This document shows positions 11,076-50,406 of a DNA stretch of 64,000 nt, one piece after another; within the stretch, counting starts at the first letter, position 1; every line of letters begins with the position of its first letter. Location: assembly GCF_024700885.2 (NCBI RefSeq), contig NZ_CP117016.1. One strand, written 5' to 3'. Below the pieces are notes generated by a model, which worked only from the letters and a program-made list of their open reading frames with translations, was not told the origin of the DNA and searched no databases. Source of the stretch: Escherichia coli. Its GTDB lineage: Bacteria > Pseudomonadota > Gammaproteobacteria > Enterobacterales > Enterobacteriaceae. The position numbers and the translations under genes were made by a program.

Positions 11076-11386
11076 TATTCACTCCAGTACTTTTCCGGGC
11101 GGGCAATACCCGGACCACATTCCACGGTGTATTCCACCAGGTCTACGCCGAGGCGGGTCAGGTCAGCAAACCAGTCGCCAGAAGGTTTTTTCTCCAGCTC
11201 AACCATTTTACGGTCAGCCAGATAATCCAGTTCGCGGCGCAGTTCCAGCGGTGTGGTGTCCGGGTAGATGGCACGGGACACATCCAGCAGCAGCGTCTCG
11301 CTGGCGGTGTAAGGGCGGGTCTTGTTCAGGGCAACCAGCAGACTCCAGCGCAGGGATTCGCGGCGTACCCGGGTAATATCGACCAT
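11075..11386 (-). CDS. hypothetical phage protein (Mu gp26 position)
   Basis: 103-aa ORF with stop/start coupling. Confidence 0.45.
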   Translation of the reverse strand: MVDITRVRRESLRWSLLVALNKTRPYTASETLLLDVSRAIYPDTTPLELRRELDYLADRKMVELEKKPSGDWFADLTRLGVDLVEYTVECGPGIARPEKYWSE

Positions 11387-15079: not shown

Positions 15080-15844
15080 ATGAAAATGCAGACATTACCC
15101 ATCGTGCCGTGGATTGGTGGCAAACGCCGCCTTGCAAAACACATTCTGCCGCTGTTTCCGGCGCATGAATGTTATGTGGAGCCGTTTTGTGGGGCAGCAG
15201 CGCTCTATTTTCTTAAGACACCCGGCAAGATCGAAGTCATCAATGATATCAACGGTGAACTGGTGAATCTGTACCGGGTGGTAAAGCATCACCTGGAAGA
15301 ATTTGTCCGCCAGTTCAAATGGGCGCTGGTCAGCCGTCAGATCTACAAATGGCTGCAGATCACCCCGGAAGAAACACTGACGGATATCCAGCGTGCGGCA
15401 CGGTTCTACTACCTTCAGAAGCAGGCGTTTGGCGGCAAGGTGGCAGAGCACAGCTTCGGTACCTCCACCACATCCCCGCCACGCTTCAACCTGCTACGTA
15501 TTGAAGAAGAACTGTCAGCGGCACACCTGCGGCTTTCCAGAACAGTCATAGAACACATGGACTGGCAACAGTGCATTGAGCGTTATGATCGTCCGCACAC
15601 GCTGTTCTACTGCGACCCACCGTACCTGGGTACGGAAGGCTATGGTGTGGATTTTCCTGAAGGGAACTACTCGCGGCTGGCAGAGCTGGCCCGGTGCATC
15701 AGAGGAAAAATGATAATTTCGGTGAACGACATCCCGCAGATGCGCGAGGTGTTCACTGGACTGAACATACAGACAGTGAATATCAACTACAGTCTGGCGG
15801 GTAAACCCACGCCGCGCCGTGAACTGCTAATCTGCAACTTCTGA
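15080..15844 (+). CDS. DNA N6-adenine methyltransferase, Dam family (orphan)
   Basis: DPPY catalytic motif (FYCDPPYLG) and N-terminal PWIGGKRRL motif typical of Dam-family enzymes; no adjacent restriction endonuclease. Confidence 0.8.
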   Translation: MKMQTLPIVPWIGGKRRLAKHILPLFPAHECYVEPFCGAAALYFLKTPGKIEVINDINGELVNLYRVVKHHLEEFVRQFKWALVSRQIYKWLQITPEETLTDIQRAARFYYLQKQAFGGKVAEHSFGTSTTSPPRFNLLRIEEELSAAHLRLSRTVIEHMDWQQCIERYDRPHTLFYCDPPYLGTEGYGVDFPEGNYSRLAELARCIRGKMIISVNDIPQMREVFTGLNIQTVNINYSLAGKPTPRRELLICNF

Positions 15845-15874
15845 AACAAAACCGGAAAGCACAATGCTTTCCGG
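15844..15874 (-). terminator. putative rho-independent terminator downstream of the repressor gene
   Basis: 9-bp perfect stem CCGGAAAGC/GCTTTCCGG, followed on the minus strand by a T-rich tract. Confidence 0.4.
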
Positions 15875-15960
15875 TAAACCAAACAACTTCCACTATGTCA
15901 CTGGCGATGTTTTCTGAAAGCATCCAGATCAACCACCTGTCCTTTGTGTCCGGGTCAGTA

Positions 15961-16317
15961 TCAGCCTGCGATTTTTCCTGGTTTTGGCTGAGTATAGAAT
16001 CGCCCAATCTCAAGAAATGAGCGTTGTTGGTCTGGTGTCATGTCGTCAAAAGTATCTATTAGTTTTTGTTTTTCTGGGGAAATTTGATTCTGGTTTCTAG
16101 TCATACCATCTGTGCTCATTCCAGTGAGCAACCAATTTACATCAACATTAAACTCTTGATGCATCTTTAACAGAAACTCCCCTCCAGGCATCGCCTTTCC
16201 ATTTTCAATCTGACTGATACCACCATTAGAAATACCTAAACGAGCTGCAAATTCTCTCTGGTTCAACCCTGCTTTCTTCCTCACAGAAATAACGCGCTCT
16301 CCTATATCTTTGCTCAT
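15961..16317 (-). CDS. phage repressor, XRE-family HTH (Mu c analogue)
   Basis: HTH LNQREFAARLGISNGGISQIENGK; divergent from ner-like gene. Confidence 0.7.
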   Translation of the reverse strand: MSKDIGERVISVRKKAGLNQREFAARLGISNGGISQIENGKAMPGGEFLLKMHQEFNVDVNWLLTGMSTDGMTRNQNQISPEKQKLIDTFDDMTPDQQRSFLEIGRFYTQPKPGKIAG

Positions 16318-16340
16318 AAAAGTGAATCTCTATCTTGATA

Positions 16341-16358
16341 TGCTCATAATTATGAGCA
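16341..16358. promoter_or_regulatory. 18-bp perfect palindrome TGCTCATAATTATGAGCA in c/ner intergenic region (candidate operator)
   Basis: Seen directly; lies between divergent repressor and ner-like genes. Confidence 0.5.
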
Positions 16359-16410
16359 ATAATCTAACACATATAAGGCAAACATCATTGCATCAACAAA
16401 GGAGACAACG

Positions 16411-16599
16411 ATGACTGCAGAACAAGTCAAAGCTCTCTTCCGCCAGCGCGGGATCACTTTCACCCGCTGGGCAGAAGAAAACGGCTACAACCGCAATGAG
16501 GTATACCGCGTTCTCAACGGGCAGACCAAAGCCCGTTACGGTAAATCCCATGAAATCGCCGTGAAGTTGGGACTGAAATCAACAGCTCAGGCGGCCTAA
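16411..16599 (+). CDS. ner: Ner-like DNA-binding protein
   Basis: 62 aa, Ner/Nlp-like sequence; AAAGGAGA RBS; first gene of early operon. Confidence 0.7.
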   Translation: MTAEQVKALFRQRGITFTRWAEENGYNRNEVYRVLNGQTKARYGKSHEIAVKLGLKSTAQAA

Positions 16600-16645
16600 A
16601 TATTTTGAGTCTTTGTAAAAGGTTATCACATATCGCAAAAGAGGT

Positions 16646-16960
16646 ATGCAGATGAGTAAGACGAATGTTTCAAGCTCCGGCAGTCGCATCCTCCGGGTAC
16701 TCAAAGCGCTGCGCGGTCATGCCCTGAACGGTATTTCTAACGGTGAACTGGCGACAGCACTGCACGAGTCACCGGCAAACATCAACCGGGCACTCAACAC
16801 CCTCATTGAAGAAGGGCTGGCTCTGAAACTGGAGAACGGACGTTTTGCACCGGGCATCCAGTTACTGCAGATCGCCATGGCCCACAGTAACGAGATGGCA
16901 CGTGCACAGGATCGTATTAACGAAATTAACCAACGTGTCATTTCAGGTAGTCGTTTGTAA
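16646..16960 (+). CDS. winged-helix DNA-binding protein (hypothetical regulator)
   Basis: 104 aa; HTH-like segment ISNGELATALHESPANINRALNTLIEEGLA. Confidence 0.5.
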   Translation: MQMSKTNVSSSGSRILRVLKALRGHALNGISNGELATALHESPANINRALNTLIEEGLALKLENGRFAPGIQLLQIAMAHSNEMARAQDRINEINQRVISGSRL

Positions 16961-16970
16961 GGAGTAATCA

Positions 16971-17891
16971 ATGGGACGTACCAAATCACCGATTAACACT
17001 GAACTGAACGCCGATGTACCGCTGTCGGATGATCTCAACGTCAGCCTGAATGCCATGACACAGCATCGCATGGAGATCATGCAGCAGTTTGGTGATGGAC
17101 TGCCTTATGAACGTGAACGCATCGTTCACGAAGCACGTTTTTATATGGCGCAGAGTGCTGAATCTATGTTGGAAGCGGGTAAGCGGCTGATCATCTTAAA
17201 AGAAAATGAACCGCATGGTGATTTCACAAATATTCTGGAAAACGACCTCGGATTAGCACCACAGGTAGCTCGTCGCATGATGCAGGCCAGCGTGAAATTT
17301 CTCGGCAATGGAGATGAACAGCCAAAACGCTCAGCGCTGAGCGTTTTGGGAAAAACCAAGTTATATGAACTGATGGTTCTGGATGACGAAGAACTCGACG
17401 CATTAGCTGATGGTGGAACCGTCGCCGGTGCAACGCTTGATGATATTGATCGCATGACCAGCCGCGAACTGAAGGCCGCCCTGCGTGAAGCGCGCGAAAC
17501 CAACGCAGCTCAGCAACAGGTGCTTGCCGGAAAGGACGAAAAAATCAACGAACTGGCCACAAAACTGGAGAAGAAATCGCGCCTGCAACCTCCGCCGCCA
17601 GACGAAGAACTGAAAAAATTGCGGGCGGAAGTGACGGCATTAGCGGTTGAGGCCGAATCGGCTATCGCCGTCCGGCTGTCCAGTGTTTTTGAGACCCTGT
17701 GTGAATACTGCACCAAAAACATGATCGATACCCCCAGAGATTTCATGGCCGGTCTGGTCTGCCAGATTGAACGCAGTGTTCATGCATTACGTGAGACGTT
17801 TGACCTTGAGGCCGCTCCATCGGGTAACGATGCCCCCGCCTGGCTGACCGAACCGGAACCTGAAATCAACCGACCGGAGGATATGCAGTAA
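16971..17891 (+). CDS. hypothetical early protein, acidic with coiled-coil region
   Basis: 306-aa ORF, RBS-coupled in early operon. Confidence 0.5.
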   Translation: MGRTKSPINTELNADVPLSDDLNVSLNAMTQHRMEIMQQFGDGLPYERERIVHEARFYMAQSAESMLEAGKRLIILKENEPHGDFTNILENDLGLAPQVARRMMQASVKFLGNGDEQPKRSALSVLGKTKLYELMVLDDEELDALADGGTVAGATLDDIDRMTSRELKAALREARETNAAQQQVLAGKDEKINELATKLEKKSRLQPPPPDEELKKLRAEVTALAVEAESAIAVRLSSVFETLCEYCTKNMIDTPRDFMAGLVCQIERSVHALRETFDLEAAPSGNDAPAWLTEPEPEINRPEDMQ

Positions 17892-25099: not shown

Positions 25100-25174
<75 letters not shown>

Positions 25175-49205: not shown

Positions 49206-50406
49206 TGCATGCCTCCAACCTCATTTCTATCGTCTGTGCCGCAGACTCAACGGAGAATTGTTCTTTCAACAATATATTCGCCCCCGAACCAAGTTGCCGG
49301 CGCACATCAATATCATGCAACATTAATAGCGCAGATTGACATAATTTATCGTCCTCACCATTGACATGGATTAATCCCGCATTATTTTGATTGACAATGT
49401 CGAGCAAATCATTTCCGGCATTTACGCTACCTAAAATAGGTAGCGACTGAACCATATAGCCTAATAACTTACCAGGAAAATTATGGGAAGAGTGTCTAGC
49501 GGAAAGAGAAAACAAGCCGATATCCATTTCCGACAAAATGAACTTAAATTCATCTTGGTTAACCGAGGGCAAATAGGTGAAATTCGTCAATGCCCACTCA
49601 GATGCTAATGAATTAATTAATTCAACTTCATCCCCCTGGCCAATAAATAGGAAATGAGCTTGAGGATATGCTGCCATGTTTCTCACAAGTCGCATCAAGT
49701 TTGTCATGTCCTGTGCATGACCTATGTTTCCACCATAGAAGAAAATGGTTTTATCCTCTAGGCCAAGTCGCTTACGTAGTGGTATATAATCCTTGGGTAT
49801 GATCGTTGGTGTTAGGGATGCCCAATTACGCAAAACTTCGCACGGATAGCCTTTATTATCTTTCCGAAAAACATCAAGATTCTTATCAGACATAAGTCCA
49901 ATACGATTTGCCTGACGATAAGATATTTTTTCAAAAAGACGAAAGTAGCGTTCTATTGGGGAACCAGCATTAAGCATTCCTGCATCAATTACCCATTGTG
50001 GAAACATATCTCTTAAAATAAGATAAGCAGGACATTGGCAACGAGCTTTAATTTTTTTAACTAAAGGCCCCCAGAATATGGAAGGTGAATAATAAATCAC
50101 CCCCTCAAAGGTCTCTTTTTTTACCCATTTTTTGATGGCTTTCCACGCCCGATAGGACAAAAGCGTTTCATTGACCGCTCGCTGAATTTTACTTACATCC
50201 TTGAGCGGCCCGCTTTTAAAACGCCATGTTTTTACCCCCTGAAAGGTATCAAAAGAAATCTCTTCTTGCATGCCCGTACCAGGAGTAATTACCGTAACAT
50301 CGTGCCCACGCTGGATAAATTCTTGAGCAAGTTCATGAAACATTTTTGCACCAACACGAGTACTGTTGGGCAGGTAATCATCTATGATTAAAGCAAGTTT
50401 CATCAA
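49192..50406 (-). CDS. wbuB: glycosyltransferase family 4 (putative L-FucNAc transferase WbuB-like)
   Basis: 404 aa directly after fnlC. Confidence 0.65.
   Translation of the reverse strand: MMKLALIIDDYLPNSTRVGAKMFHELAQEFIQRGHDVTVITPGTGMQEEISFDTFQGVKTWRFKSGPLKDVSKIQRAVNETLLSYRAWKAIKKWVKKETFEGVIYYSPSIFWGPLVKKIKARCQCPAYLILRDMFPQWVIDAGMLNAGSPIERYFRLFEKISYRQANRIGLMSDKNLDVFRKDNKGYPCEVLRNWASLTPTIIPKDYIPLRKRLGLEDKTIFFYGGNIGHAQDMTNLMRLVRNMAAYPQAHFLFIGQGDEVELINSLASEWALTNFTYLPSVNQDEFKFILSEMDIGLFSLSARHSSHNFPGKLLGYMVQSLPILGSVNAGNDLLDIVNQNNAGLIHVNGEDDKLCQSALLMLHDIDVRRQLGSGANILLKEQFSVESAAQTIEMRLEACNAIN

Follow-up and report, generated by a model that had tools for sequence, protein, structure and literature searches.

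Gene organisation and prophage context

The window analysed here, a 64,000-nucleotide stretch of Escherichia coli DNA, contains a divergent gene pair separated by a 93-bp gap (positions 16318–16410), which is bounded by the start codon of a leftward repressor gene (CAT, 16315–16317) and by the start of a rightward gene at 16411. The gap is AT-rich (32% G+C) and harbours the sequence TGCTCATAATTATGAGCA, a perfect 18-bp palindrome at positions 16341–16358, denoted O1, in which the arms TGCTCA and TGAGCA flank a 6-bp centre, TAATTA. A first-pass annotation had described a palindrome of this length in this interval, and both its perfect symmetry and the identity of the interval with the divergent intergenic gap were confirmed, the latter from the ORF map. 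The palindrome had also been described as lying centrally, which is only approximate, since O1 is offset toward the repressor, 23 bp from the repressor ATG and 52 bp from the ATG of the rightward gene. The features of the region are collected in Table 1.

Table 1. Features of the divergent region in window coordinates; promoter elements, operators and terminator are predicted from sequence
Feature	Positions	Strand	Description
Terminator-like hairpin after the repressor gene	15851–15875	−	11-bp stem, then TTTGTTT; consensus match
Repressor gene, 118 aa	15961–16317	−	HTH domain (residues 5–65), disordered linker, conserved two-helix C-terminal tail
O3, putative intragenic copy, TGCTCA-TTCCAG-TGAGCA	16113–16130	none	repressor codons 63–69; 228 bp from O1
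O2, putative weaker operator, TGCTCA-TAAAAG-TGAATC	16311–16328	none	9/12 arm bases; 30 bp left of O1; overlaps repressor start codon
Pe −35 hexamer, TTGATA	16335–16340	+	all nine immunity types scanned have a −35-like hexamer here
O1, proposed primary operator	16341–16358	none	fills the Pe spacer; arms invariant and centre variable in four type-A lineages; different dyad at the same place in heteroimmune relatives
Pe −10 hexamer, AATAAT	16358–16363	+	17-bp spacer; right-hand boundary of the exchangeable cassette
Conserved −10 and leader, ATAATCTAWCACAYATAA..CAAACATCATTGCATCAA..AGGAG	16359–16410	+	common to all immunity types; RBS AGGAG at 16400–16404
Candidate Pc extended −10, TGTTAGATT	16361–16369	−	overlaps the Pe −10; −35-like ATGATG at 16383–16388, 16-nt spacer
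First early gene, 62-aa BcepMu_gp16-family small HTH protein	16411–16599	+	'ner-like' by position

The product of the leftward gene carries an HTH_3/XRE domain (Pfam, 4.6e-15) and matches PHROG families designated 'transcriptional repressor', which bears out the divergent gene pair proposed in the first-pass annotation. Searched against the PDB, its DNA-binding domain retrieved the N-terminal domain of the 434 repressor (E 3e-8) and P22 c2 (E 1e-5), and it shows 38.5% identity with phage 434 cI by tblastn (range for the 434 repressor, 38.5–41%). The AlphaFold (AF2) model comprises a five-helix domain spanning residues 5–65 (pLDDT >90), a disordered linker (residues 71–78) and two C-terminal helices. 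The modelled domain superposes on the P22 c2–operator structure (3jxb, TM 0.91, rmsd 1.2 Å) and on the 434–operator structure (2or1, TM 0.89), with rmsd values ranging from 1.2 to 1.4 Å. A search for a Peptidase_S24 domain gave no match in the 118-aa repressor, and the best whole-length structural match of the model was SinR (1b0n_A).

The rightward 62-aa protein is a full-length member of the TIGR04111 BcepMu_gp16 family (97.4 bits against a cut-off of 34). It scored 17.9 bits (E 0.003) against the Pfam Ner family (PF13693, HTH_35), for which the gathering cut-off is 25; it gave no sequence match in the PDB, and Mu Ner was absent from its top 50 Foldseek matches. Thus, the earlier label 'ner-like' suits the size and position of this gene and does not extend to membership of the Ner family. 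On its 3′ side, the ORF map and domain matches place genes for an IclR-like wHTH protein, a DUF3102 protein, a 105-aa protein, a DDE transposase and a MuB-like ATPase.

Positions 15900–16700 of the window are 100% identical to Escherichia phage PhiKM (PQ738613), a phage classified as a Bcepmuvirus whose source is a uropathogenic E. coli isolate. PhiKM maps onto positions 1–25174 in two pieces that meet at 11077/11078, so the GenBank record is a permuted form of the prophage sequence. This places the palindrome within a BcepMu-like transposable prophage that probably ends on the right near 25174, where phage homology stops; its left end is beyond the start of the window. The region is present at 99% identity or more in 389–390 of the 5,426 complete E. 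coli genomes (approximately 7%), ST131 strains included.

The PhiKM record carries no annotation of the repressor gene, whereas RefSeq E. coli genomes do annotate it. Instead, the record (PQ738613.1, 29435–29857) lists, on the opposite strand, a probably spurious 41-aa ORF (window 15895–16020, + strand) whose sequence overlaps the 3′ end of the repressor gene. Between the convergent Dam methylase and repressor genes lies the hairpin listed in Table 1, with the stem ACCGGAAAGCA..TGCTTTCCGGT, and its sequence makes it a likely terminator of the repressor transcript. Literature searches on PhiKM, the BcepMu operator and repressor, DUF3102 and BcepMu palindromes gave no description of the sites reported here.

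The palindrome within the predicted early promoter

The combination TTGATA-17-AATAAT, on the plus strand, was the sole match to the sigma-70 consensus in positions 15800–16700, with 10 of the 12 consensus bases, and we refer to this predicted early promoter as Pe. O1 occupies its spacer exactly, the last base of the palindrome being the first base of the −10 box, and early transcription is predicted to start near 16369–16371. A separate scan with our own approximate position-weight matrix covered nine immunity types, found among the related prophages described below, and in each the best plus-strand promoter fell at this same position, with scores of 8.7–14.4. The corresponding −35-like hexamers (TTGACA, TTGACT, TTGAAA, TTTACA or TTGCTT) stand amid unrelated surrounding sequence.

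The leader that follows (16359–16410, approximately 52 bp) is kept also in phages that have a first rightward gene without relation to gp16 (L040, L012). As it is maintained across repressor types and across unrelated first genes, its conservation is tied to neither the repressor nor gp16; the leader may contain overlapping core elements of Pe and of a leftward promoter, or it may be a recombination junction. The best-scoring minus-strand site common to all nine types lies in this leader, and we place the candidate leftward promoter Pc there with low-to-moderate confidence. If Pc is correctly located, Pe and Pc would be mutually exclusive and O1 would cover the repressor's own transcription start, then expected at about 16352–16356, so that repressor synthesis would be self-limited; we consider such negative autoregulation possible, at somewhat under even odds.

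Palindromes of this length are not rare in a window of this size. Dinucleotide shuffling of the 64 kb gave an expectation of 0.3 perfect palindromes of at least 18 bp per window, and 26% of the shuffled windows contained one or more. A palindrome of this kind arose within the 93-bp gap in 14 of 20,000 dinucleotide shuffles, the motif TGCTCA-N6-TGAGCA occurs three times against 0.17 expected, and TGCTCATAATTATGAGCA itself occurs once in the 64-kb window even when 3 mismatches are allowed. Chance in AT-rich intergenic DNA is one form of the explanation that we consider least probable of all, and it is excluded by the comparative data given below. Its other form is an RNA or DNA hairpin, acting as a terminator or a processing site. 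O1 can indeed form a stem of 7 bp, with folding energies of −8.9 to −9.2 kcal/mol and z values of −3.6 and −2.3 for the two strands, but neither side has a T-run, Rfam gave no match in 15800–16750, and the predicted early start lies downstream of O1, which would leave O1 out of the early transcript. Moreover, conservation of the arms together with variation of the centre among related lineages is the pattern of a protein-binding site.

A 16-bp perfect palindrome, TGAATTAATTAATTCA, is present outside the prophage at 49609–49624; about one of that length is expected per window by chance. Binding sites of the host factors CRP, LexA and IHF were rejected as an identity for O1: judged by eye, the dyad is unlike their consensus sequences, and a host-factor site should not change with immunity type.

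Immunity types and the exchange of repressor domains with their dyads

Related prophages were gathered from E. coli genomes and IMG/VR using the conserved leader CAAACATCATTGCRTYAAHMAAGGAG as an anchor. The −10 box and the leader (xATAATCTAWCACAYATAA...) are common to all of them, and the gp16-like gene to most. Leftward of the −10 box, however, the relatives fall into approximately ten unrelated types, each with its own 16–20-bp dyad in the Pe spacer (Table 2); the dyads of types B and F are rather imperfect, with 5–6 of 8–9 positions paired.

Table 2. Pe spacers of the immunity types, which contain the dyads, each shown between its −35-like and −10 hexamers
Type	Representative	−35, spacer, −10
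A	window	TTGATA-TGCTCATAATTATGAGC-AATAAT
B	L002	TTGACT-GGTGAGGTAATCTGCAC-CATAAT
B3	L008	TTGAAA-GGTTGAAAATTTTCTAC-CATAAT
C	L004	TTTACA-TATCCCATTTTTGGGAT-AATAAT
D	L006	TTGACA-ATGAGAACAATGGTTCT-CATAAT
E	L010	TTGCTT-TATACACGTTTGTGTAT-ATAATC
F	L012	TTGACT-ATGTGACTTATTGATCA-CATAAT
G	L052	TTGCTC-TGTCTAAATTTTTAGAC-AATAAT

The repressor of every type has its own N-terminal HTH domain, followed by one of two conserved C-terminal tails. The tail found in the window, SPEKQxLMDAFDDMSPEQRRAILEVGKVLTQPKPSKFAG (residues ~80–118; window 15961–16080), is predicted to form two helices and recurs among repressors whose DNA-binding domains are unrelated; the second, different tail is found in types D and F. Judged from these sequences, the repressor gene is subject to modular domain shuffling. 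The limits of the exchange are visible in the comparison of the window with L002 (type B), in which identity is 93–100% to the left of approximately 15940 and to the right of 16358, 60–73% over the repressor C-terminal tail, and at random level (30–56%) over approximately 16089–16358. This profile defines an exchanged cassette in which the −35 box and the dyad accompany the half of the repressor gene that encodes the DNA-binding domain; on the right, the cassette ends with the final base of the palindrome.

The first-pass annotation had proposed the palindrome as an operator for one or both of the flanking regulators. A site read by the gp16-like protein, alone or shared with the repressor in the manner of Cro, would suit a small HTH protein in the Cro/Ner position whose predicted fold weakly resembles those of the 434 repressor and 434 Cro (E 0.28–0.6), and lambdoid Cro and cI read the same operators. 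However, the two components separate in both directions. The gp16-like protein of type B is 100% identical to that of the window, while the repressor DNA-binding domain is 27% identical and the dyad unrelated; conversely, in L040 the first rightward gene product is unrelated (25% identical), whereas the DNA-binding domain is 77% identical and TGCTCA-TTATTG-TGAGCA stands at the same position. In addition, the gp16-like gene lies outside the exchanged cassette, which ends at the −10 box, whereas in lambdoid immunity regions cI, the operators and cro travel together. We therefore regard a role of the gp16-like protein at this site as very improbable, and of the earlier proposal the part concerning the repressor stands, strongly supported by the position in the promoter spacer and by the comparative data.

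The transposase was considered as another reader of the palindrome, which would then serve, instead or in addition, as an internal transpositional enhancer recognised by the transposase N-terminus. The element is a transposable phage with the DDE transposase and the MuB-like ATPase just downstream, and the Mu operators O1 and O2 also serve as the transpositional enhancer to which MuA binds. Nevertheless, types A, B, C and D have unrelated dyads and yet transposases that are 91–95% identical over their first 104 residues, and, unlike Mu c and MuA, the repressor gave no BLASTP alignment with the first 159 residues of the transposase. An enhancer role is thus even less probable than recognition by the gp16-like protein. 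Taken together, the two-way separation seen in type B and L040 and the conserved transposase N-terminus indicate that the dyad follows the repressor, and neither the gp16-like protein nor the transposase.

Within type A, four lineages were compared (the window, L040/L051, L047-49 and L050), whose repressors are 64–67% identical overall and whose recognition helix, ISNGGISQIE, is unchanged. The arms TGCTCA-N6-TGAGCA of O1 are present in all four, around the centres TAATTA, TTATTG, AAATAA and TAATTA. The 434 and P22 repressors contact the outer bases of their operators and leave the central bases uncontacted, and invariant 6-bp arms around a free 6-bp centre correspond exactly to that pattern.

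Two further sites accompany O1. The sequence of O2, TGCTCATWAAAATGAATC, is kept in the four type-A lineages 29–30 bp to the left of O1, amid variable neighbouring bases, and sites of the respective own type are visible 29–31 bp to the left of O1 in types B, B3, E and G. Likewise, all four type-A lineages have O3 within the repressor gene, 227–228 bp from O1, with the centres TTCCAG, TTCCTG, CTCCTG or CTCCAG. Synonymous sites are nearly saturated among these lineages, only 6 of the 44 degenerate codons for invariant amino acids being identical in all four; both six-fold degenerate codons within the O3 arms (Leu64 CTC and Ser68 AGC) are nonetheless invariant, and the substitutions of the O3 region sit just beside the arms, at the first position of codon 63, the third of codon 65 and the first of codon 67 (Met/Val). 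The constancy of the O3 arms despite synonymous saturation points to selection on the DNA rather than on the protein.

A cross-type control extended the observation to other repressors. For types A, A2, B, B3, C, E and D2, the best secondary match to the O1 20-mer lies in the repressor region of its own type, with 14–17 of 20 bases matched against an off-diagonal background of 11–13; types D and F showed no clear intragenic site in this control. Type G is a recombinant that shares the C-terminal half of the window's repressor and has a different DNA-binding domain, and it has lost the right arm of the A-type O3. The distance between O1 and O3, 228 bp, amounts to approximately 21.7 helical turns and is not obviously in phase for looping. 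For O2 and O3 alike, we consider a function as auxiliary operator, in cooperativity, autoregulation or looping, to be somewhat favoured. The exact fit of the dyad in the −35/−10 spacer, the weaker site over the repressor start codon and the third copy inside the repressor gene had all been missed by the first-pass annotation.

In type-D prophages (L006/L007, 1341–1802; WP_001259267/8), the annotated repressor ATG falls inside the Pe −10 box (the CAT of CATAAT). A GTG located 36 nt downstream and preceded by a GAGG RBS is a more plausible start.

A separate palindrome was observed inside the DUF3102 ORF (16971–17891, + strand), where 28 bp at 17322–17349 form a perfect palindrome whose halves are CCAAAACGCTCAGC and GCTGAGCGTTTTGG. 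Of 58 homologues (L002–L114), 49 have a perfect or near-perfect palindrome of 20–32 bp at the equivalent codons; its sequence variants number at least 20, both arms carry compensatory changes, and the encoded peptide changes. Pairing holds in 95.5% of cells across 22 variants, and both sides have changed in 7 of the 14 pairs; covariation is 0.52, compared with 0.18 in shuffles (none of 500 reached the observed value) and at most 0.10 in slid controls. Its innermost pairs covary too, which a hairpin loop cannot explain. Mismatches of the G·U type were weighed as a sign of a hairpin in the sense-strand RNA, but A·C mismatches also occur, and the aligned variants, read by eye, represent few independent events. 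The palindrome has no T-run and no Rfam match (17200–17480), none was found in the literature searches, and it is linked neither to repressor type nor to the IclR-like protein. A relation between the operator arms and its core (GCTCA..TGAGC in both) was rejected, as L040, which has the same type-A arms, carries a palindrome without that core. This palindrome is more unusual than O1.

The proposed switch and its relation to known systems

On the combined evidence, the palindrome has a probability of approximately 0.85 of being the divergent repressor's primary operator, one whose occupancy would block RNA polymerase at the early promoter. In the mechanism we propose from these sequence comparisons, a repressor dimer with a 434/P22-type HTH would read the outer TGCTCA arms and leave the 6-bp AT-rich centre largely uncontacted. 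Repressor bound at O1 would exclude RNA polymerase from Pe, the early operon (the gp16-like, IclR-like, DUF3102, transposase and MuB-like genes) would remain silent, and the transposable prophage would consequently be kept quiescent and the cell immune. O2, at 30 bp, and O3, at 228 bp, would probably add cooperativity, autoregulation or a DNA loop.

In its DNA-binding domain and operator design, the system is of the 434/P22 repressor–operator type, set within what is probably a module of the BcepMu gp17/gp16 type. The five-helix HTH_3 domain is homologous to those of 434 cI and P22 c2, and the predicted operators share with those of 434 (ACAA-N6-TTGT) a dyad whose outer arms are conserved around a variable 6-bp centre, the presence of several related sites and the overlap with a lytic promoter. 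The differences from the lambdoid systems lie elsewhere. In place of the C-terminal S24 peptidase/RecA-cleavage domain of lambdoid repressors there is a short two-helix tail; the small divergent HTH protein, unlike lambdoid Cro, is encoded outside the specificity cassette; the three tandem OR sites are replaced by one strong spacer site, a weak site at the start codon and an intragenic copy; and the host element, unlike 434 and P22, is a transposable phage.

The resemblance to Mu and D108 is limited to gene layout. As in those phages, the repressor gene is divergent from an early operon that begins with a small HTH protein and continues with a transposase and its ATPase partner, the repressor is proposed to silence the early promoter, and heteroimmune relatives differ in this region. 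However, the repressor has an HTH_3 domain rather than the winged helix of Mu c and is unrelated to the transposase N-terminus, the small protein, unlike Mu Ner, misses the Pfam Ner cut-off, and use of the operator as an enhancer is unlikely.

Affinity with the BcepMu gp17/gp16 module is indicated by the classification of PhiKM as a Bcepmuvirus and by the full-length TIGR04111 membership of the rightward gene product. BcepMu gp17 has been listed as a repressor in the description of phage KS10, in which a gene for a gp16-like DNA-binding protein adjoins the repressor gene on the opposite strand (PMC2628397). In the annotation table of that study, the KS10 repressor has an E. coli B171 protein and BcepMu gp17 as its best matches (PMC2628397). 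Among the 40 tblastn matches listed, of the 100 phage records matched by the repressor of the window, BcepMu was absent, and the searchable literature yielded no description of an operator or promoter for the BcepMu gp17/gp16 family.

The intragenic site recalls lac O2 in lacZ and gal OI in galE, in that a full operator copy lies within coding sequence approximately 230 bp from the primary operator and is held against synonymous drift. Unlike in lac and gal, the putative auxiliary site is in the repressor's own gene, and its distance from O1 does not obviously correspond to a whole number of turns of the helix; looping is putative here. SinR consists of an HTH domain and a C-terminal two-helix oligomerisation hook and is antagonised by SinI. 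The repressor described here has the same domain order, an HTH domain followed by a C-terminal two-helix element, but the whole-length superposition is poor (rmsd 9.8 Å) and no SinI-like partner was identified.

In summary, this is an ordinary phage on/off switch with a textbook repressor–operator arrangement, and the gain is one of detail rather than of principle. What is added is a map of the operator, promoter and cassette for a prophage common in clinical E. coli, including the three-site arrangement, and a corrected annotation for PhiKM. Approximately ten natural, apparently orthogonal repressor/operator pairs on a single promoter scaffold could serve as parts. The operator and cassette boundaries also allow heteroimmune prophages to be predicted. 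More tentatively, and at clearly less than even odds, we suggest that the three-site system closes a repression loop, and that specificity evolves by the swapping of a compact cassette, the DNA-binding domain with all its sites, bounded by the −10 box and the SinR-like two-helix tail. If this were so, the shared tail could be the common target of one induction or antirepressor mechanism across heteroimmune phages.
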